In this document: one piece after another, positions 1,174 through 52,023 of the stretch
Numbering within the stretch: position 1 is the stretch's first letter
How the letters are laid out: each line of letters begins with the position of its first letter
Source of the DNA: a virus
Taxonomy: Duplodnaviria; Caudoviricetes
DNA: 52,218 nt
IMG/VR virus record: IMGVR_UViG_3300025846_000001
Coordinates: 1-52,218 of that record
Direction: 5' to 3' (one strand)
The notes under the pieces: model-generated
What the model was told of the DNA's origin: nothing
Seen by the model: only the letters and a program-made list of their open reading frames with translations
Database searches by the model: none
Made by a program: the position numbers and the translations under genes

Positions 1174-1884
1174 TTAATTATATTCTTGCGCTTCAAGTTT
1201 CGTAATAAAGGCATGAATGCCATGCGAACACTCAATAAGAGGGGAAGGATCAAAGGAATCAGGAGTGACTACCTCGCCGGTCTTATAAATAAAAACAGAG
1301 TTATAGGTGCCTAATCCTTTTTTTACTTTCTTTTTACCATCATAAATTGCAATTACTTGAGCAAATTCAAATCTACATTTACGGCTTCCGATAGCATTTA
1401 CTCTTTTTGCTTTTGTAGGAATAAGAAGTTTTGCTATTAAATTACCTTGCAGTTTTTTCCATACTATTAAATCACCTTCTGGAGTTATTGAATTTAAGGA
1501 TGCTATTCTTTCTAAATTCGCTCTGGATAAATCCGCTCTGGATAAATCCGCTCTGTATAAATCCGCTCCGTATAAATTCGCTCTGGATAAATTCGCTCCG
1601 GATAAATTCGCTCCGGATAAATCCGCTCCGGATAAATTCGCTCTGGATAAATCCGCTCTGTATAAATCCGCTCCGTATAAATCCGCTCCGGATAAATCCG
1701 CTCTGGATAAATCCGCTCCGGATAAATCCGCTCCGTATAAATTCGCTCTGGATAAATCCGCTCCGGATAAATCCGCTCCGTATTTCAAAGCTTCTAAAAC
1801 AGTTTCTTTTATTGAGTTATCTTCCTTTTCAAACTCAAAAAGAAGTTTGCCGAAAATTGATTTAATTTGAATAGTTGTTTTCAT
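1174..1884 (-). CDS. Pentapeptide-repeat protein with a conserved phage C-terminal domain (DUF5758-like)
   Basis: About 18 A(D/N)L(S/Y)(G/R) repeats; C-terminal RKCR...ECSHGIH motif. Confidence 0.9.
1516..1785. repeat. Coding 15-bp tandem repeat (pentapeptide repeats)
   Basis: Units of aaat(c/t)cgctc(c/t)g(g/t)at. Confidence 0.95.
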
Positions 1885-2307: not shown

Positions 2308-2495
2308 GATATAGCACCTCTATTCGGTAATTCTTATGAATATCCGCTTTGTTATTTAAACACTCAGGAAAGAAGACAGCCCCATCGTTAAGGGTTGGAT
2401 TGAACTTTTAAAGTATTACCGACCAAATTGTGAGTTTGCGCACGTTGTTTGGATTTGTTTATCGTTACCAAGCCTTCTCATCCTGCTCTGTTTTT
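2308..2495 (-). ncRNA. Putative structured ncRNA, copy A (homologous to 51663-51851)
   Basis: Colinear conserved blocks with copy B plus compensatory helices, e.g. UCGGUAAU/AUUACCGA versus UCGGACAU/AUGUCCGA. Confidence 0.75.
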
Positions 2496-2543: not shown

Positions 2544-3074
2544 CTATTTTAAAAACATATCATAAGGATCAAATCTGTAAATATTAACTTTCCTTTTACT
2601 TGTTTGAATCCATGTATTTTTGTGACTTATTCCGAATCTTTGATTTATTTTTACCCATCCCATTGTTTGCCAAAATAAGTTACTTGGTAAATCATCTGCA
2701 CAACCACAGGAAAATGAATGAGTATAGATAGTTTTTGCATATTCAATTACGCTATCCAAAAGTAATTTACCCCTTAACATTAATCTTGCATCTATCTGTA
2801 AGCATATTTGCGCTATTTTGCCATATTTCCAAACCGCATTATATTGACCAAATGAAGCTAAAACAAATCCGACCAAATCACCATTACAATCACAAACCCA
2901 AATCTTATCATTACAAGTATCTGACCACCTATCCCCTTTTTTAATTCCTGTTATAGCAGATTCATAAGCCATTTTGGGAATAAAACCAATTGATTGTGAT
3001 TCCTTTTTTGAAAGACTAACAATATAAGGTAAATCTTTAATTTCAGCAAAACGGACAATTCCGATTTCAATCAT
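2544..3074 (-). CDS. GNAT-family acetyltransferase
   Basis: LVGFVL strand, IAQICLQIDARLMLRGKLLL (motif A-like), SNLFWQTMGW (motif B). Confidence 0.75.
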   Translation of the reverse strand: MIEIGIVRFAEIKDLPYIVSLSKKESQSIGFIPKMAYESAITGIKKGDRWSDTCNDKIWVCDCNGDLVGFVLASFGQYNAVWKYGKIAQICLQIDARLMLRGKLLLDSVIEYAKTIYTHSFSCGCADDLPSNLFWQTMGWVKINQRFGISHKNTWIQTSKRKVNIYRFDPYDMFLK

Positions 3075-3625: not shown

Positions 3626-3742
3626 AAAACCCCCGGAAGCCTGGTGAGACTGGAGCGGGGGTCTTAGGTTAACCTTAATATCTTTATGTTTTTGCCTCAC
3701 CAAGCAGATACAAAATTAAAACATATTAATTTAATAAACAAA
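3626..3742 (-). promoter_or_regulatory. Promoter (TTTG-N20-TAATTTTG) plus pseudoknot leader L1
   Basis: -33 at 3739-3742, -7 at 3711-3718. The 5' segment 3694-3705 pairs (12 bp, 2 G-U) with 3639-3650 in the loop of hairpin 3656-3662/3629-3635, which is followed by Us. Confidence 0.75.
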
Positions 3743-3760
3743 TTTATTTTAATAAATAAT

Positions 3761-3790
3761 AAAAAAGCAGGGAGAAACTACGCTCCCTGC
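3761..3790 (-). terminator. Intrinsic terminator after the lysis cassette
   Basis: GCAGGGAG/CTCCCTGC stem followed by U6. Confidence 0.85.
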
Positions 3791-3824
3791 CAAACCTAAC
3801 TACCATGAAAAAAACCAAGAAAAC

Positions 3825-20303: not shown

Positions 20304-20320
20304 ATTATATTATTTTAAGT

Positions 20321-20360
20321 AAAAAAGGCCTGATACAAAATTAAATGATCAGACCTTTTT
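20321..20360 (-). terminator. Intrinsic terminator after the MCP, with a TAATTTTG promoter element in its loop
   Basis: AAAAAGGTCTGAT...ATCAGGCCTTTTTT. Confidence 0.7.
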
Positions 20361-20384
20361 ATTAAGAAACATTAAGTTATATTA
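20336..20384 (-). promoter_or_regulatory. Putative late promoter: 25-bp box, 16-bp spacer, TAATTTTG
   Basis: Same box and spacing as 9032-9080. Confidence 0.7.
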
Positions 20385-21392
20385 AGCACATGCAAATGCT
20401 AAAATACCAGAATTGGTTGCAGAGCAAGGAGCAGGATTCAGCGCAAACAGTCCATGAAGCTGAACTTTAAATGCGGTGAAGTAATCGTTATTCAAACAAG
20501 TCCTTTCAGTAAAGATGTCATAAGACACTCCCGGAAGGTTCCTTGAGTTTTCACTCCATGCCATCCTGTCAGCGGTGAGTTGTACGGCATTAGCACCACC
20601 AAGCGGATACCAAGCCTTGCCAACGAAAGCAACAGCGGTTTTATGCAGTAAGAACGTGTAAGCCGGGGCGATAACCTCAACATTTTCAGGGTCAAGATAC
20701 ATCTTCAGCGTATTCATCTTTGCATAATTACCTTTACCATCAGCATTACCAACTTCCAGAGACCGGTTAAAGATCAACTGATAAAGGTTTGTTCCGGTAA
20801 TACCATAAGGAGAAGTAAATTTATTCATCCTTGCAACCAGATCCATATAACCCCAGATATTATCATTCCAGTTACCTGGAGCAATAGTTGTCAGAGCGCC
20901 GGCAACGGTTCCAACACCTCCGGTATATACGTTCGTCCCAGCAGCAGCAAGAATCCCTGTTAAAACAAACTGAGCAATATACTCATCTAATAGTTTTTTA
21001 CGTCTCTCAATGAGGAATGCGATAGACTCTTCTGGGTTTGTAGTTCTCTCCCTATATACACGGTCGGCAACTTTAAAAGACGACTCCTGTAAACAGGTAA
21101 TCTCATATTCCTTACATTCCGGAGTTGCATCATCACCGTCAATAGAGCAATCATCGGTACATGCTTCGGTAGTGGCATCGCAATCAGTGAGCCATTCCAA
21201 AGAAATAACTTTCTTTTTATTCTTATCTTGAAGTTCACCAAACTTAACAGATTGGTTTTCAAGTACAGCCTTTGCAGCATTTACATCAGCTTTCAGATCA
21301 ATGTTTTTTATAGGATCAAGCCAGATCGCATCAGCTTTTGCCTGAATCGTAGCTAAATATCCACAGTCAATTAATGAGTTCGGTTGTGACAT
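20382..21392 (-). CDS. Major capsid protein (HK97 fold likely)
   Basis: 336 aa after the scaffold; spine-helix-like ESIAFLIERRKKLLDEYIAQFVL; followed by a terminator; 9 Cys. Confidence 0.8.
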   Translation of the reverse strand: MSQPNSLIDCGYLATIQAKADAIWLDPIKNIDLKADVNAAKAVLENQSVKFGELQDKNKKKVISLEWLTDCDATTEACTDDCSIDGDDATPECKEYEITCLQESSFKVADRVYRERTTNPEESIAFLIERRKKLLDEYIAQFVLTGILAAAGTNVYTGGVGTVAGALTTIAPGNWNDNIWGYMDLVARMNKFTSPYGITGTNLYQLIFNRSLEVGNADGKGNYAKMNTLKMYLDPENVEVIAPAYTFLLHKTAVAFVGKAWYPLGGANAVQLTADRMAWSENSRNLPGVSYDIFTERTCLNNDYFTAFKVQLHGLFALNPAPCSATNSGILAFACA

Positions 21393-30106: not shown

Positions 30107-32560
30107 TTAACCATTATAATAGTTTTTAAATAATTCGACTAATTGATATTCGCAATTATGTACTAAAATACCATTTGCAAAGTATTCATGTTCTGATTCA
30201 ACTGTAATATCATAGACATTTCTTTTTTCGCCCTCCTTTATTCTCCACACATGCATGAGAACAGAACTTATTTTTACTCCATTTATTAATTGAAAATATA
30301 TTCCCGCATTTTTGACATATTCTATCTTCGTGATATTTCTTCGCAGCTCTGTCTTTTCTTGCTTGATATTTGAGCTGACATTTTCTTGAACAATGTTTTG
30401 GTTTTCTCCTGAGATTAGATTTAAATTCCGTACCGCAATCAATACATTTTGTAATATATTCTTCTGTATATATAAGTTTAGCAGTGTTTTGCTCATGCCA
30501 CTGCTTCCCTGTTTCGGATTTGTGCCACTTAACTGCTTCCGGAATAGCCAATTCGATAAGTTTTTTAGTATTGGCATCTTTATATTCCTTTGATGAGATT
30601 TTGTAATGATGACTGATATGCTTTCCCTGAAGCATAATCTCATAATTTGAAACTTCGTTATTATTAAAATTAGTATCAGAATGATGTACTGAAAAACCCT
30701 TTGGAATAATCCCGACTTCTTTTGTGTATTTGTGAATATGGAGGCTTTTTTTACGCCAGATTCCATTTTCTTTAACCCATCCTTTATAGTAGTTTCTGTC
30801 TGATGCTTTCTTTGCATTTGGGTATCTATGAAACTTAAACCCATCATAAATAATAGTTTGTCTTTCCATGTTTGTTTTTCTTCAAAGATAGCTATAATAT
30901 TCTTATCTATCAATGTTGATACCATAGAAAAACTGCCATTGTCGTATATTTTATGATCAGGCGTGCAAGTTATTTCTTTATCACCTATCCTGTATGTTTC
31001 AACTGCTTTGATACCATTATTTTTTACCGCCGTAATTCGTTTATACCCATTACGTGTTAAAACATTATCACCTACTTTTAAATTCCTGATATATTGAGCG
31101 CCCCTATCAGTACTTATTAAAGTTTCAGCCACGAAACACAAATCCCCAAAATGCCCATATTTCTGATATTTCTCCCCGGAATCTTTATCAGTAACTATAT
31201 GCTTATCTTTACCTCCGTCAAGAGCCTGCTTAGTGTACATCATGTCAGCTATCATCTTTTTACAACTCTCGTCAAAGCAAATCCTGATCGGTAATTTGTT
31301 TTCTAAGATCAGATTAATAAAGTCCCTGCGCTTAACAATAGAAGGATTACTAAATAGCGTTCGATCAGATCCGTTATTTAAGTATCTCCTTAACTTAAAA
31401 TCAATTATCTCATAATGGTGTTTAAAGTCTTTATTCATCGTTGTCCGATTGTGCCCGGAAGCATCACCGTAATAGTAAAGCCCTGAATTATGATTCGGGT
31501 AACGCATCATGAACTCCTCACATACCTCTTCCGTGGAATTACGAGGGTTCTCCAGGGCTATCTCATCAATAAAGATACATTCCCATAAGTCTCCATTACG
31601 TTTAACCTGCGATATGCCACATGAGTTATAAGGTACAGTATTTTGGTCAAAGCTTAAATGAAGCGGAAGTAACGGATCGTATCTGAAATTTCCTACATGA
31701 GTCAATCGATTAAAAGATGAATAAAACTCTCCCCCCGAAACCGCAAAAGGGTTAGCAAATACCAATGCGCGACCTCGTTCCTCTGTATTATTCTGTAAGA
31801 TATTATTAATGTAGTTAATACCTACATTATGAACATTATGATAAGTTGAAGAAATAACAACCTTTTTGTTATTAAACTCCTTTTCAAAAAAGGTTTTATC
31901 GGAATATATTTTAGATGCAATTTCATCTACATGCTGATCTAATTCAAAAAGTAAATTTAGCCAGTCAACGCGGGCCGGCGACGTAAGACAATAAAGCGGA
32001 TTCCATTGCTGGTCTACTCTCCCTGTATGGCTTACCTTGCCATCAACAACGAACATACCGGGTTGACGAAGCCTTGTTATTATAACCTCTTTAACTGCCT
32101 CCTCGCGAGTATCCTTAGTCTCGTCAAGCAGACAAAAACCGAACTCTTTTCCAGAATGACTCATGTAATTTTCAAGTGACCCTGTAAAGATTAATCCCCC
32201 ATTACAGAAGGATATTATATTATTGAATCTATCAAAATTGCGCTTGCATTTAAGCCACTGTGGAGGCGGTTCTTTGCCCGACGCATATGTTCCCGATAGA
32301 TTATCCTTACTCCACTCCGTCACTCCTATACTTGCCCAGTATTCCCGTATCCTAAAGAGCGTGGCTGAGTTAAGTTGATCGAATGTGTTACTAAAGATTG
32401 CACCCCTTACTTCCGGGAACTGGTTGATAAAATTTATCGCAATCATCCCCCCTAAAAATGTTTTTCCGGATCCAGTACCTCCGAGAAATAAGTTATTATT
32501 CGCCGTACTGGAGAGTATAGCCATTTGCGGTTCTGATATTATTTGCTCAATTACTTCCAT
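30107..32560 (-). CDS. terL: Terminase large subunit (intein-containing; 489 aa after splicing)
   Basis: Walker A GGTGSGKT, Walker B LLDE, nuclease SFD and YGDASG; the C-terminal HxxD motif (GHFGDL|CEY) is split by the intein. Confidence 0.93.
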   Translation of the reverse strand: MEVIEQIISEPQMAILSSTANNNLFLGGTGSGKTFLGGMIAINFINQFPEVRGAIFSNTFDQLNSATLFRIREYWASIGVTEWSKDNLSGTYASGKEPPPQWLKCKRNFDRFNNIISFCNGGLIFTGSLENYMSHSGKEFGFCLLDETKDTREEAVKEVIITRLRQPGMFVVDGKVSHTGRVDQQWNPLYCLTSPARVDWLNLLFELDQHVDEIASKIYSDKTFFEKEFNNKKVVISSTYHNVHNVGINYINNILQNNTEERGRALVFANPFAVSGGEFYSSFNRLTHVGNFRYDPLLPLHLSFDQNTVPYNSCGISQVKRNGDLWECIFIDEIALENPRNSTEEVCEEFMMRYPNHNSGLYYYGDASGHNRTTMNKDFKHHYEIIDFKLRRYLNNGSDRTLFSNPSIVKRRDFINLILENKLPIRICFDESCKKMIADMMYTKQALDGGKDKHIVTDKDSGEKYQKYGHFGDLCFVAETLISTDRGAQYIRNLKVGDNVLTRNGYKRITAVKNNGIKAVETYRIGDKEITCTPDHKIYDNGSFSMVSTLIDKNIIAIFEEKQTWKDKLLFMMGLSFIDTQMQRKHQTETTIKDGLKKMESGVKKASIFTNTQKKSGLFQRVFQYIILILILIITKFQIMRLCFRESISVIITKSHQRNIKMPILKNLSNWLFRKQLSGTNPKQGSSGMSKTLLNLYIQKNILQNVLIAVRNLNLISGENQNIVQENVSSNIKQEKTELRRNITKIEYVKNAGIYFQLINGVKISSVLMHVWRIKEGEKRNVYDITVESEHEYFANGILVHNCEYQLVELFKNYYNG
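30155..31138 (-). mobile_element. Class 1 intein, 328 aa (TerL residues 475-802)
   Basis: Block A CFVAETLI, block B TPDH, blocks F/G VYDITVESEHEYFANGILVHN, and a +1 Cys. Confidence 0.95.
30210..30869 (-). CDS. HNH homing endonuclease with two C4 zinc ribbons, encoded in the -1 frame inside the intein
   Basis: VHHSDTNFNNNEVSNY...H motif; CIDCG...CSRKC and CQKCG...CSHAC; A-rich start context. Confidence 0.88.
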   Translation of the reverse strand: MERQTIIYDGFKFHRYPNAKKASDRNYYKGWVKENGIWRKKSLHIHKYTKEVGIIPKGFSVHHSDTNFNNNEVSNYEIMLQGKHISHHYKISSKEYKDANTKKLIELAIPEAVKWHKSETGKQWHEQNTAKLIYTEEYITKCIDCGTEFKSNLRRKPKHCSRKCQLKYQARKDRAAKKYHEDRICQKCGNIFSINKWSKNKFCSHACVENKGGRKKKCL

Positions 32561-37886: not shown

Positions 37887-40800
37887 ATTTCATCCTTCTT
37901 TTTTTCTAATTCTCTCATCTCTTGATGATAGGCTTCGGCAAACTCCTGCATGGCATCTGTACAAATAGTCCATTCTTCGCAAACCTTAACCAATTTTATA
38001 GCCCGATCCATTGCAATATCATTAGGGAACGCATCCTCCCATTTATCACGATAAGTCAATTCAAGTATTTCTTCTTTTGTTTTCATTTATTACTGTTATT
38101 TTTAATATTATCAATAATGTCTAATGCAATACTTTCTATTATTGCCATAAAGGACAATAAATAATAAAACATGGTTTTTGCAGTCAATGGATTATTCATC
38201 TCTGCTAAGCAAATTAAAACTAATCCAGTTAAGCCTAATATAAATAATATATATCTCATACCTGCCTCCCTGCAACACCAAACCCTCTGTTATAAATAAA
38301 TACAGCTAACTGTTCGGGTGTAGCATCCTTGACTAATATGAAGTATCCAAACCAATCAGATTTCCAAACATTATCATTAGGATTTTCAAATCCCATCTTT
38401 AATAAAATATCCTGTGTCTCTTTCATTGCCTGTCTTTTTGAAATAAATGTTTAATCAATTTGTCATTTTCAAACACGTAAAAATGTAAACCAAGTCCTCC
38501 GAATGGAGAAAATCCATAATCACTAACAATCCTGATTTTATTTTTTGTTTTCATCTGTTACTGTTTTGCGGTTAGCCAATACTGATAAAGTTTCTTAATG
38601 CCTTTAAAGGTTTTATGAGTTTCAATTTCCTGATACACATCCGCTTTATTCCATAATTTCACACAATCAGCAGCCACCCATTCAGCAAATTCCTTTTCGA
38701 CATACTTACTCTCTATAAACACTGCAATGTCTTTTGCATAATCTTCAAACGAACATGATAAATCACGTTTTCCAAATATTGCTAAAATCTGCTTTTCCAT
38801 GATTCCTTATTTATTTAACTCTATCCGAGATTTACTTTGGGTGGTTACCATTTTACTTCAAAAGGCATTTTTGCAATTATCTCTATTGCTGTTTTGTTTG
38901 CCATTATACGCTTTATCATTTCGGGTTTATCAATAGTTTCCTTAACCCAAAATACTGACTTCGTTCCCGGTCTTGTGTCGGTACAACTTCCAGCAATCCC
39001 AATAACAGTATAACCACCACCCTGATAAAATGATACTTCTCCTTTTTGGAGGTTATTAGTTAATTGTTCGGGATTAAACGGAAGGTCATTAAATCTTATT
39101 GAAGTATGATAACTAAAACCGTCATCTATATTTACTCGATAATGTCCTGCAACTTGTAAATCTGTTCCAAAATATTCCATTTTCGTATAATTTAGTTTTA
39201 CTTATTTACTATCCGTTATGGTTGCTTTGACTTGAAAATAATAAATCCCGCTTCTTTTAAATAAAGCAATATCCCGTCTGCTAATTCAGAACATTGATCT
39301 GTTGTAAAAGCATTTGTAGCATAAAGAGCATTTTGAATAGGTTCAGATACATCTTCATCCGTCACGCTTATCTCTGGCTGTTGATTCTGCTTAATTAACT
39401 TATCCAAACATTCAGCACAAATACTATGAGTATCCTTTTCTTTGTCGCAATCAACACAGGTACTCGTCTGTTTTGGCTTAACAGGATAATACCTTTCGCA
39501 TATAAGACATGAAGTTTCTCTTTTACACGTTGCAGGATCAATATGATTTTGACAATTAATGTTTCCCCATAAATCCATTTTTTCATCAATACATCCTATT
39601 TGCATAAAACTTCCATTTTTCATTTTAGCAAACTCTTCTGGTGTCTGTTTTGGCTCGATCTTATCAGTCATAGTAAAGTCTCTCCAGCTCGTAGGGTGTT
39701 TTGGTGTTTCCTCTTGTGGCTCGATGGGATGAACTATTGGTCTCCATTCCATGCCTTGTTTGCATGGATATTCTGAATCACATTTTTTATGGTTTACACA
39801 ATGTAGTCTGCAATTATGGCAACCTCTTTCAGGAATATGTATTACGGTTTCTTTTTTCATGTTATTTGGTTTTAATTTTATATTTTACACAATCTAAATC
39901 ACATAATTTACACCCATTACACAAAATACTACTGATGAAAATATTACATTCTTTCTTTTTCATAGATGCTTAATTCTCTTGTTTAAATGTTCATTTGCTA
40001 TCGTGTTTTTAGTTCTCTTTATAAACAAATGGGTTCTCCATGTATCAAAATAACCTAAATGTTTGTGACATCCATTACAATATACTTCATCACCTATTGT
40101 GTAAAAGTCTGGATGACTGCATTCTTGAGCTTTCTCTTCTGTTAAAGGCTTTTCTTCTTTCTTATATAACGTATCCCTTGCTTTTGCAAACTCCTCGGGT
40201 GATACTTTCGGAAAATTCTTGCTCTCTTTCATTTTTTTTATAGTTTCAGTGCTTTATAAGAAGTTTTATCATCCCAGTTATCCCTGTGCAATATCAAGTC
40301 AATTAAAGCACCTGAAATTTCCTGAGAGGTTGCATTTTTAAGTTTTGTTCTTGAAAGCCAAACACTATTAATTCCATGTTTAATTTCTCCCTTATTTTTT
40401 GTTATATTAAAAAATGAGAACGCATCAGCAGTGGTATTCATTTCAATATTATGTATTTCAAATAATTCAACCAATGTGTAGAAAATACACTCTACCGTTT
40501 TGACTTGATTTATATTATCATTCTGTTCTATTTCTGAAAGTGTATTTATTATTCTATACAACCCGTTGGCATCGGGATGACTCAATGAATCAACACTTAC
40601 TTTGTAATTGTCAATTATAAACTTATTAAATCTCATCTTTCTCTTATTAGTTATTAACTCTAATACACTGGTGATTAACTCGTTTTATAAAGACCACATG
40701 GTTTTGAATTAATAGCCCCTGCTACTCCCATCTCTTTCCCCGCTTTCTTTGATGCAAGTTCAGTAGGTTCTTTTGACAGTTCTGCAAGTGCAGATTTGAT

Positions 40801-41085
40801 ACGTTTAATTTCATGCCATAACCGTAATTTTAAATCTTTACTTTCGTCATCATCCAACTCCTTACTCCACATAATTACAACATGCGTGCTGTATGCTGAT
40901 AATGCTTCAATCAGTCCCGCTTGCTTCTCATTGATCAACTTTAGATTTGCTGTTTGCTGGTCGCTGAACTCCTGCATTGTATGTAAGGATTCAGAAACAG
41001 TTAAGTTAAAACAACCTTCATTTACTGATTCTATACGCCTGCCTGTAATGCGTGCAATGATTTCTTCTTTTGTAAGTGTTTTCAT
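37874..41085 (-). other. Array of small hypothetical early/middle genes (37874-38086, 38558-38800, 38845-39180, 39216-39860, 39960-40232, 40238-40636, 40675-41085 and shorter ORFs)
   Basis: Tightly packed minus-strand ORFs with A-rich starts; 39216-39860 has several CxxC motifs. No family recognised. Confidence 0.6.
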
Positions 41086-41483
41086 AGTTTCGCTTTTACG
41101 AGTTTCCAGTAATCCAATGTCATAGGGCCTGATCCATTCCAGTCCTTCGCTGCCTGGGAGTAATTTTTACCCTGAGCAAATCGCAGAAATACTTTCCGAC
41201 TTAATTCTAAATCAAAACAATCTGCAGTCGTGTAATTTGAACCTACTAACTTGTTATAGTGATTAATTCTGCACGGTCTTATCTGCATCGGCCCGGCTGC
41301 TTGTTCAAGAAAGTTAAAGGCGAATATGTCCCCTTTGCTTTCAACCATTACTATTGCCCTCATTAAAGCATCGTAATAGTTTATTTCTTCTGGAACGGCA
41401 ATATATACCACTTTCGTATCGGGTGCCTTAGCGTTGCTTAAAAATAGGCTTAGCATTAAAATTGTTATTGTCATCATTTTCAT
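41082..41483 (-). CDS. Secreted lysozyme / lytic transglycosylase-like protein
   Basis: Signal peptide; AIVMVES (catalytic Glu), GPMQI, WNG. Confidence 0.75.
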   Translation of the reverse strand: MKMMTITILMLSLFLSNAKAPDTKVVYIAVPEEINYYDALMRAIVMVESKGDIFAFNFLEQAAGPMQIRPCRINHYNKLVGSNYTTADCFDLELSRKVFLRFAQGKNYSQAAKDWNGSGPMTLDYWKLVKAKL

Positions 41484-50436: not shown

Positions 50437-50897
50437 AACCTTACAGTTACTTTAGTCTTACCTGTTTTTGGAGGACGTGTTAAGAAGTTCCCATATACAG
50501 GGCAAACAGTTCCCTCCTCAGGAATTGATTTTAAATAGGTTTCACGAGCCTTAATCTTCTCTTTAAGGGTTTCTACTTCTTTAGTAAGATCAAGCCAAAT
50601 AGCATCGCCGGAATCGTTGTACAAATATTTCGTACCTACTTCCTGAACGGTGAATTTTATTCCCAGATGATCAAAGGTCTTTTCCTTGTACTTTTCAGCT
50701 TCAGTAAGAAAATGCTCTTCAATATCTTTATCGGTTAAAATATCTGCAAACACCTTTTCAATAAATTTCAACCTTTTGAGTATCTCTAAAGGGTCGCGGT
50801 CGTCTGCCAGAATCTCTGATTTAAGCATCCTGGTAAATTGTGCCACCTCCAGTTTTTCTGAAGGCAGCACGCTGATTGTTGATAATGCAGTTTCCAT
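50433..50897 (-). CDS. Hypothetical protein (recombination module)
   Basis: 154 aa; coupled to neighbours. Confidence 0.6.
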   Translation of the reverse strand: METALSTISVLPSEKLEVAQFTRMLKSEILADDRDPLEILKRLKFIEKVFADILTDKDIEEHFLTEAEKYKEKTFDHLGIKFTVQEVGTKYLYNDSGDAIWLDLTKEVETLKEKIKARETYLKSIPEEGTVCPVYGNFLTRPPKTGKTKVTVRL

Positions 50898-51634
50898 TAG
50901 AAGGGTAAATCTGAAAGTTCATCACTCTGATCTGCTTTTGACTTATTAACCAAGTCTTGTTTTGCGGAACCTTTTTGCCAATCCGGATTAGCAACAAACT
51001 CTTCGGTTGCTTCAGCTTTAGCAATTTCCTTTTCTGGTTGTTGGTTTTTATATTCATCCAAATAACCTTGAAGTATCTCATCCAATAAAATTGCTTCCTG
51101 TCTTATCTCATCAGTCATTTTAAAAGCCTTGAAAACAGGAACATTATAAACAGTATTCCCATTTGTTTCTTCTGTTAGATCAACAATTCCGACAACTGAA
51201 TTGTTTGTATTGAATTTCTTTTCAAGCCAGCCGGAAAATGAAGATCCTTTGAATTTAAAGTTTACCAGCTCATTTGTTCCATCTTTTTGAACAAGCAAAG
51301 CATAAACAGACTTTGTGTATTTGCCTCCAATAGCCTTTATAGAGTCTTTAACATCATTATAAAGTCCGATAATACTTTCCCCGCCTTTAAAGGTCTTGAC
51401 CCTTAAAATCTCTTTAACGGTTGAATGCACTTCATTTGAATACACACCGCAGTCATTTTTCTTATTGTAGCCGGAAATTGTTGAAAGCTCATCCAGTACT
51501 ACAAAATAAATAGGCATAGGAATTTCAATCTGAACTTCTTTTTCTTTATCATAATAGAAAAATTGTCCTTTGTCCCCTTTAAAGTCAATAAACTTCTTGC
51601 AGGGATTCTCTAATTTTGGTTTTGAAATACTCAT
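50897..51634 (-). CDS. Putative ssDNA-binding protein
   Basis: Beta-rich core and an acidic tail ending DLPF (SSB-type C-terminus). Confidence 0.6.
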   Translation of the reverse strand: MSISKPKLENPCKKFIDFKGDKGQFFYYDKEKEVQIEIPMPIYFVVLDELSTISGYNKKNDCGVYSNEVHSTVKEILRVKTFKGGESIIGLYNDVKDSIKAIGGKYTKSVYALLVQKDGTNELVNFKFKGSSFSGWLEKKFNTNNSVVGIVDLTEETNGNTVYNVPVFKAFKMTDEIRQEAILLDEILQGYLDEYKNQQPEKEIAKAEATEEFVANPDWQKGSAKQDLVNKSKADQSDELSDLPF

Positions 51635-51662: not shown

Positions 51663-51851
51663 ACATATCACTTTTATTCGGACATTATTATTAATATCCA
51701 TTTAACTTTATTTAAAGTTCTCAGGTCAAAAGATGCCCGCATTCGGTAACGGCTGAGTTTGAATCTTTATTCATGTCCGACCAAGTTGAGAAGTTGACTC
51801 AGAGCCTGGATTTTGTTATCTAACTCAGATCTTTATATCCTGCTTTGTTTT
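51663..51851 (-). ncRNA. Putative structured ncRNA, copy B (homologous to 2308-2495)
   Basis: Same conserved blocks as copy A; helices 51773-51780/51678-51685, CAGG..AAAGAU/AUCUUU..CCUG, CUGAGUU/AACUCAG. Confidence 0.75.
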
Positions 51852-51882
51852 GGATTACCCTATTTCGGGATGGGAAAAACTG

Positions 51883-52023
51883 TATCAAAAACCCTATGTC
51901 TGGCGTTACATGGGCTGTAAACGACTGCATCACTGCGGGCGGTTTTTCGCCAGAGCATAGAGCAATTTTTGATAAGTCTTTAATTTGTATCATTTACACC
52001 CATGTAAATCCAATACAAATATA
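51883..52023 (-). promoter_or_regulatory. Promoter (TATATTTG) plus pseudoknot leader L5
   Basis: -7 at 52016-52023. Segment 51990-52007 pairs (~18 bp, one bulge) with 51906-51924 in the loop of the long hairpin 51948-51974/51883-51905. Confidence 0.78.

Follow-up and report, generated by a model that had tools for sequence, protein, structure and literature searches.

An uncatalogued family of large pseudoknotted RNAs at operon boundaries in uncultured tailed phages, probably of Bacteroidota

Few classes of RNA are both large and intricately folded, and nearly all of those with a known function serve in demanding biochemistry such as catalysis, ligand sensing or scaffolding. GOLLD, ROOL and HEARO/OLE are large, ornate, highly conserved and partly phage-borne, and their biochemical role is obscure. 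Here we describe an RNA that shares these traits, found in the genome of an uncultured tailed phage (Duplodnaviria; Caudoviricetes; IMG/VR record IMGVR_UViG_3300025846_000001). The record is a complete phage of 52,218 bases with 35% G+C, and it was analysed whole; we call it the window. A 127-bp terminal repeat indicates that the genome is circular, and on this circle two non-coding stretches of the minus strand, copy A (core at 2311-2494) and copy B (core at 51665-51851), start ~2.7 kb apart. A sequence-only reading of the window had taken them for two diverged copies of an unrecognised, pseudoknotted RNA. Our analysis shows that they are diverged copies of one uncatalogued family of large structured RNAs in uncultured tailed phages, probably of Bacteroidota.

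In its likely mode of action the RNA comes closest to pseudoknot-type leader switches and put RNAs, yet it belongs to neither group. The preQ1-II, SAM-II and fluoride switches, compared here in general design and not by structure, have a covarying aptamer-like fold in a 5′ leader, with the 3′ strand folded back as a pseudoknot and an internal competitor for that same strand, and all of this recurs in the phage RNA. However, the phage RNA is three to seven times larger, has no match in Rfam, is not a leader in some of its copies and displays neither a visible terminator nor sequestration of a start site. Strong as its fold and covariation are, no feature points to a ligand pocket. Nor are the genes downstream of it those of one common pathway, as they would be for a riboswitch. 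The put RNAs of the enterobacterial phage HK022 are two simple stem-loops of ~70 nt. Like putL and putR, the RNA described here is found in cis behind predicted promoters that head phage operons, in more than one copy and with no phage protein partner, but it has at least eight helices plus pseudoknots, and its A-type copies lack a promoter.

Phages of Bacteroidota and Bacillota also carry arrays of non-coding RNAs associated with UG27 reverse transcriptases, which resemble our family in being phage-borne, multi-copy and pseudoknotted, with diverged sequence and conserved structure. As described in that report (bioRxiv 10.64898/2026.09.22.753630), the UG27 unit is one main hairpin with an asymmetric internal loop, and units of ~150 nt form a tandem array within a single intergenic region; our RNA is instead a multi-helix junction whose copies lie 1.5-20 kb apart and not in tandem. 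A UG27- or retron-like template RNA was rejected on this difference in build, on the lack of a tandem array and on the absence of the reverse transcriptase domain RVT_1 from all four genomes searched (G000, G001, G002 and G004), in a search that did match control genomes. The Rfam models of GOLLD, ROOL and HEARO/OLE do not match our RNA, which is smaller (250-370 nt) and tied to promoters and operon starts. The autoregulatory leader pseudoknot of T4 gene 32, and candidate RNAs upstream of GP32 in a survey (PMC10690425), are similar to copy B, a pseudoknotted leader directly upstream of a gene for a single-stranded DNA-binding (SSB)-like protein, but other copies of our RNA precede unrelated genes. 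Among the copies examined only copy B precedes an SSB-like open reading frame (ORF), and the SSB-like genes of contigs L023, L024 and L025, whose products are 62-71% identical relatives, have no element upstream; an SSB-specific leader was therefore discarded.

The sequence-only reading could not match the RNA to a known family, and our searches agree with it. Rfam 15 (4,227 models, including riboswitches, ribozymes, GOLLD, ROOL, OLE, HEARO, 6S, RNase P, tmRNA and group I and II introns) returned no match in the whole window at gathering thresholds. An E-value search of both copies turned up nothing but noise, namely snR54, at E 1.6 and off the element, and drum, at E 6.9 and with 13 bits where the threshold is 43; ten member loci gave no match on the element. 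A known RNA family was thus ruled out as its identity, there being no tRNA or tmRNA gene either. Nucleotide BLAST searches against cultured phages gave no match, nor did a search of copy B against genomes G001-G003, and word searches of the full-text literature returned no description of this RNA, which is not proof of absence. As judged by these comparisons the family is new at the family level: No catalogued family fits it. Fremin et al. predicted 8,495 unnamed candidate RNAs in IMG/VR in 2023 (PMC10690425), and the family may be among these.

The two cores have the same architecture. Copy A (~184 nt) and copy B (187 nt) score 187 and 188 bits, respectively, with R1, a covariance model of the ~185-nt core, and both contain helices H1a/H1b, H2, H3/H3b, H5 and H6, a pseudoknot, H4, and a conserved 3′ tail. 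All RNA features of the window given here are on the minus strand. H1a/H1b is a long helix that closes a multi-helix junction formed with H2, H3/H3b and H5. The helix strands lie exactly at the positions given by the sequence-only reading, and the shared sequence blocks are colinear in both copies. Across an alignment of 22 distinct core sequences (A9) we counted 42 pairs over seven helices, and 94.5% of their cells pair; as a control, sliding each 3′ partner by 1-3 columns left 34.5-44.9%. Both A9 and a second alignment, A7, were fitted to the nested helices, and their pair counts are biased in favour of these. Thirty of the 42 pairs are changed on both sides across the 22 sequences, and the compensatory changes proposed by the sequence-only reading are genuine. 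The covariation score is 0.513 for the proposed partners, at most 0.102 for slid ones, and 0.513 was reached in none of 500 shuffles. H3 is 100% paired and H3b 98.9%, with covariation in each of the four H3b pairs. Conserved nucleotides line the junction: an AAAACARAG block at the 5′ side (invariant in 18 of 22 cores and diverged in four), GAUAA before H3 and YCUGAG after H1. Folding of single sequences gave weak z-scores (-0.8 and -0.9), because the method is blind to pseudoknots.

The pseudoknot is free of the nested-helix fitting bias, as are the counts for the 5′ domain described below. H4 has 8 bp and forms when the 3′ tail folds back onto the strand adjoining H3. Though it lies outside the model, it is 97.7% paired, occurs in eight sequence variants and has six of its eight pairs changed on both sides, and the long-range helix that had been suggested from the two window copies is thereby shown to be real. 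By pair counts, its 5′ strand is UCGGUAAU (2415-2422) and its 3′ strand AUUACCGA (2324-2331) in copy A; the equivalent strands in copy B are UCGGACAU (51773-51780) and AUGUCCGA (51678-51685).

Family covariation likewise supports the proposed pairings CAGG(A)..AGAAGGC/GUCUUCU..(U)CCUG (H1), UUGG/CCAA (H2) and CCC/GGG (H5), and two of the six helices that had been put forward are not conserved. In one of these, AUCC/GGAU, the GGAU is missing from L026, L027, L069 and L036; a covarying hairpin that the sequence-only reading did not contain, CCAAA/UUUGG (H3), takes up the CC of AUCC. The other, a competing helix (ACUCA/UGAGU), lacks a complementary strand in L047, L031, L026, L027 and others. That several pseudoknots cross is correct only if the count includes the alternative pairing of the H5 loop with the H4 5′ strand and copy B's 5′ domain, since within the core H4 alone crosses other helices. 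The whole unit is longer than the suggested ~190 nt and modular, with two 5′ hairpins and, in copy B, a further 120-nt domain. The general picture, a compact pseudoknotted non-coding RNA read from the minus strand and with no relevant match in Rfam, is upheld.

The 5′ strand of H4 has a second possible partner. Its first five bases are complementary to the loop of H5 (UAACGAU at 2384-2390 in copy A, located by pair counts): This pairing is 86% paired, compared with 11-67% for slid partners, and three of its five pairs are changed on both sides. Column 78 of the alignment, within the strand, pairs with loop column 116 as GC in 16 sequences and AU in 6, with none broken, and with distal column 189 as GC in 15, AU in 6 and GU in 1. 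In the six sequences where column 78 has changed from G to A, the loop partner has changed from C to U without exception, and the distal partner has also changed from C to U, with one G-U. Since the strand can be held by only one partner at a time, what the family preserves is two mutually exclusive pseudoknots. Such three-way covariation points to a conformational switch.

About 20 other contigs from uncultured phages and metagenomes carry the family, giving the 22 distinct core sequences. We sought relatives by scanning for exact patterns built on blocks common to both window copies, and inspected the stretches returned to discard chance hits. Six scans of IMG/VR returned 3, 5, 15, 10, 7 and 9 stretches, among which 3, 2, 3, 7, 7 and 8, respectively, were true relatives. 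A metagenome scan returned 43, of which 13 were true and 30 were discarded as chance. The chance matches thrown out on inspection were L005-L007, L011-L022, L028, L030, L032, L105, L117 and L118. A strict exact-pattern scan of one genome per prokaryotic species returned 14 stretches, none of them true, and hence no prophage or host copy. Duplicates were removed before alignment (L009 and L037, equal to L008; L040, to L027; L054, to L031; L074, to L010), as was L029, a truncated copy of L026. Retained in all counts were L067, whose 3′ part including the H4 3′ strand is non-homologous, and L073, which appears error-prone (single-base deletions relative to L060).

Searches with R1, a check that the sequence-only reading had suggested, found exactly two copies in the window at E-values up to 1, and copies outside the seed of the model in further contigs: three in G004, two in L090 and one each in L102 and L104 (E 1e-21 to 1e-43). 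That six copies absent from the building of the model (both of L090, the second and third of G004, L102 and L104) match it in this range, and retain the same helices through new compensatory variants, shows that the resemblance is not due to chance. The number of copies per genome is one to three. The complete genomes G001 and G002 have one each, while the window (A and B), G004 (three) and L090 (two) have two or three diverged copies of different types. G004 (L100 and L101) is a complete phage genome of 38.9 kb, with copies at 931-1106, 20309-20494 and 37912-38096. The spacing between copies is 2.7 kb in the window, ~19 and 17.5 kb in G004 and 1.5 kb in L090. G005, the closest relative of the window in structural genes (~50-65% amino-acid identity), has no copy (best R1 E 0.45). 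In the third copy of G004 the otherwise invariant CAGG/CCUG of H1a has become CAGA/UCUG, and H4 is a new variant.

Whole units extend beyond the stretches in which the RNA was first noticed, to ~2311-2546 for copy A and ~51665-52010 for copy B, the latter with a promoter-like box at 52016-52023. Two hairpins, H0 and H0b, precede the core in every copy, and the stems of both covary. In copy A, H0 (2522-2544) has the stem GGCUA/UAGCC, which is GGGAA/UUCCC in L010 and L051, and a conserved 13-nt loop, UUUUGACACAGUU. The usual H0 loop is UUUUGAYACAGUU, a motif that the window has nowhere but at copies A and B and that is replaced in diverged copies. H0b of copy A (2501-2520) has the stem GUAU/AUGU and the usual loop of this hairpin, UGAUUAUAUCGA; stem variants are ACAU/AUGU, AACC/GGUU and GCUG/CAGC, and three of four pairs are changed on both sides. 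By alignment, H0b of copy B (51858-51869) is CCC/GGG with a shortened loop, GAAAUA, and its H0 (51872-51894) is GGG/CCC with a loop containing UUUUGAUACAGUU. A promoter scan lists the TTGACA in the H0 loop, which might be read as part of a sigma-70 promoter. This was rejected, as the hairpin covaries, B-type copies have a separate box upstream and the TTGACA is missing from diverged copies.

Copy B and 12 other copies, which we call B-type, have an extra 5′ domain of ~120 nt. In an unfitted MAFFT alignment of 11 sequences and 35 pairs, this domain is 96.1% paired, compared with 31-41% for slid partners, and 18 of the 35 pairs are changed on both sides. Its backbone is a 19-bp long-range duplex of strands X (51989-52008 in copy B) and Y (51906-51925), with changes on both sides in 12 of 19 pairs. 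A 13-bp helix crosses X:Y, so the 5′ domain is itself pseudoknotted. This helix consists of Pf and Pb, whose 5′ strands (CUCUAUG and CUGGCG) lie at 51948-51962 and 3′ strands (CGCCAG of Pb and CAUAGGG of Pf) at 51892-51905, and it is 99.3% paired. A hairpin, Pd (51927-51936), with the stem GCA/UGC and the GNRA tetraloop GUGA, is 100% paired and has two of three pairs changed on both sides (GCC/GGC, GUC/GAC). A model of the domain made of local hairpins was rejected, being 74% and 80% paired and thus weaker than the long-range duplex at 93%. The GGG that otherwise builds H0 can instead pair upstream, where it is used by Pf, and this gives a second possible alternative pairing. In contig L116 (9910-10400, plus strand), a B-type promoter box, 5′ domain, H0 and H0b are followed by a AAAACAGAG block, beyond which the sequence is different and has no R1 match. 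Cores of more than one sort may therefore share these 5′ modules.

Conservation of this kind could also arise from a hidden peptide gene, or from a DNA-level site for replication origin, packaging or recombination; we consider this very improbable. Inverted repeats in DNA would also yield pairs, and a frame of 54-58 codons starting with MIQ or MVQ at a conserved AUG is open in several B-type copies (40 codons in L060). In copy B this frame has 57 codons and spans the 5′ domain (51820-51993). We judge it non-coding because its variable columns fall on codon positions 1, 2 and 3 in counts of 16, 20 and 17, with no third-position bias, because indels of lengths not divisible by three shift it in L027 and L031 and it is cut short in L060, because its AUG lies inside the X:Y duplex and because A-type copies lack the frame. 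Within the core, stops close all three forward frames of 22 of 22 sequences. As for a site in double-stranded DNA or on the opposite strand, the core alignment has 40 G-U or U-G cells and 2 A-C or C-A cells, which neither would explain. The structure is therefore read as RNA from the gene strand, in line with the earlier remark that G-U pairs favour the minus strand.

In Bacteroidota the -7 element of promoters used by the primary sigma factor has the consensus TAnnTTTG (PMC7366714), and we recognise promoters in this study by that motif only. It occurs in 11 of 11 B-type copies examined, at -169 to -182 from the core and ~8 nt before strand X, against a background of 0.76 per kb; in copy B it is TATATTTG at 52016-52023. 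Sixteen of the 39 gene-strand boxes of the window fall within the intergenic 9.7% of its sequence. The portal protein of the window has distant matches (22% identity), only to phages of Bacteroides and Parabacteroides. These two observations, the motif and the portal match, are the whole basis of the host assignment and make a Bacteroidota host likely.

In 8 of the 11 B-type copies the next ORF begins 17-31 nt past the conserved tail with no second box between, and these RNAs are 5′ leaders. Copy B is a true 5′ leader: It ends 31 nt before the ATG of a 245-aa ORF (50897-51634, minus strand; phrog_6706, SSB-like with an acidic DLPF tail), the first of a string of SSB-like and replication genes. 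The sequence-only reading placed both copies upstream of early operons. This is right for copy B. Copy A directly abuts the stop of an upstream ORF (2544-3074, minus strand; 176 aa, acetyltransferase-like, phrog_1249, E 1e-06), whose stop codon overlaps the first base of H0, and ~125 nt with a promoter-like -7 box of their own (TATCTTTG, 2211-2218) separate it from the next small ORF. Moreover, the first copy of G004 heads the terminase (late) operon, standing before the small terminase gene with two boxes between, and the element is therefore not specific to early genes. The results so far show a modular, multi-pseudoknotted, gene-strand RNA at operon boundaries, in which one strand has two alternative partners.

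We tentatively favour, at somewhat short of even confidence, a cis-acting operon-leader switch that acts on its own transcript. During transcription, the H5 loop would keep hold of the H4 5′ strand until its 3′ partner has been made; H4 could then form and tie the tail and the nearby start region to the compact core, the conserved tail of most B-type copies ending only 17-31 nt before the start codon. An effector (a metabolite, a host protein, or the transcription or translation machinery) would shift the balance between the two pairings and so govern either how translation starts or what becomes of the mRNA downstream. It is probably host-derived or a small molecule, because no phage protein co-occurs with the RNA: Among window ORFs with any match in four other phage genomes, none is common only to RNA-bearing genomes, and the ORF at 41082-41483 is common to all four compared genomes, including G005, which lacks the RNA.

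Several observations weigh against a leader switch, beside the bias in the counts for nested helices mentioned above. The H5-loop pairing draws on five pairs and a few lineages and could be a folding intermediate and not a regulatory state. The start codon is unpaired, no terminator follows the element in the window, and no known type of expression platform is visible. The downstream genes are unrelated (SSB-like, small terminase, epimerase/methyltransferase/glycosyltransferase, HNH and others without an assigned function), which argues against a classical metabolite riboswitch. Five A-type copies (copy A, L008, L010, L051 and L072) abut the stop of an upstream ORF, a UAG just before H0 in three and a UGA within the H0 loop in two, and have no TAnnTTTG box within 260 nt upstream. 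A further promoter-like box precedes the next gene after copy A and after the first and second copies of G004, and the third copy of G004, near the genome end, is followed ~35 nt on by a hairpin and U6, like a stand-alone gene.

The last of these observations would suit a stand-alone, trans-acting structured RNA, expressed from its own promoter or by processing, that serves as a host-protein scaffold or sponge or as part of a ribonucleoprotein, with specialised paralogues. The second copy of G004, which comes after tail genes, has its own box (TATTTTTG) 68 nt before the core and directly before H0, and another (TAAATTTG) between it and the next gene. In L104 (minus strand) a box of ~25 nt (ACACTGTTTTA, a 7-8-nt spacer and CTAATTT) lies ~60 nt upstream of the RNA and is repeated ~30 nt downstream; it may be a phage-specific promoter, one for the RNA and one for the next gene. 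The variety of contexts (5′ leader, between operons, after the last gene of a short operon) and the two or three diverged copies of different types per genome are also what one would expect of such an RNA, and the many invariant single-stranded blocks and the GNRA loop would be at home in a tertiary fold or on a surface that binds protein. However, most examined B-type copies run into an ORF before any terminator or second promoter, G001 and G002, both complete genomes, make do with a single copy, and the lack of a co-occurring protein among the compared genomes counts here as well. On balance we regard a trans-acting role as possible, if doubtful.

Small ribozymes are common in phage genomes, and the RNA could be a large self-cleaving or self-processing ribozyme that cuts polycistronic phage transcripts at operon boundaries, insulating operons or maturing mRNA ends. 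Its independence of gene context, its position at operon boundaries in several copies per genome and its compact pseudoknotted core with strictly conserved junction nucleotides would all agree with this. It is nonetheless an unlikely explanation: No Rfam ribozyme model matches, a length of 185-370 nt is far above that of most self-cleaving classes, no cleavage site can be inferred from the sequence, and two covarying alternative pairings fit a switch better than a single catalytic fold.

The 16 window ORFs of at least 250 aa, among them the genes for terminase, portal, tail, endolysin and primase/polymerase, all lie on the minus strand, and the window has intrinsic terminators (for example at 3766-3791). 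Such an arrangement would give scope for processive antitermination of the put type, in which the nascent leader binds the RNA polymerase that made it and carries it through the terminators of long one-directional operons. B-type copies are well placed for this, since each directly follows a promoter-like box and opens a long series of genes that run in one direction; in addition, genomes have more than one copy, and no phage protein partner would be needed. The architecture is unlike that of the short two-stem put RNAs, A-type copies have no promoter directly before them and some copies are immediately followed by another promoter-like box, all of which leaves antitermination distinctly unlikely.

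The terminator at 3766-3791 (minus strand) is a strong one, a 9-bp stem with six G-C pairs followed by a U-run. Three TAnnTTTG-like boxes surround it, one just upstream and two just downstream, and this region (3718-3798) divides the lysis genes from the short operon whose last element is copy A. Between copies A and B, a cluster of small genes includes one (1174-1884, minus strand) for a pentapeptide-repeat protein fused to DUF5758, a possible DNA mimic or anti-defence candidate. The SSB-like protein encoded after copy B has cultured-phage relatives only in 55 Mycobacterium phage records (37.6-38.7% identity among the matches listed), an odd distribution for a putative Bacteroidota phage. The large terminase ORF (30107-32560, minus strand) is unusually long at 817 aa, with terminase profiles matching its two ends only, and its G005 homologue is equally long (61% identity across 815 aa). 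Some ORFs downstream of copies of the RNA contain long GCT/GAT-rich repeats that read as Ala/Asp- or Leu/Met-rich depending on frame (L069:153-410, L099:2138-2392 and L025:2500-2760); those of L069 and L099 gave spurious weak matches to the Rfam isrG model.

A bolder view, which we hold to be rather doubtful, is that of an autonomous, promoter-equipped phage RNA machine of ~250-370 nt, with at least 14 helices, three crossing interactions, a two-state pseudoknot and two or three specialised paralogues per genome, that would need no phage protein and would either process operon boundaries as a novel ribozyme or directly reprogramme the polymerase or ribosome of its Bacteroidota host. Transcription and translation signals are atypical in Bacteroidota, and to our knowledge phage gene regulation there is almost unexplored. 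The novelty of the RNA is at the level of the family, and its mechanism may prove to be of a known kind. For an RNA of such size the comparative support, which includes a pseudoknot and three-way covariation, is unusually clean, and since no protein partner is apparent, the RNA is directly testable in vitro.

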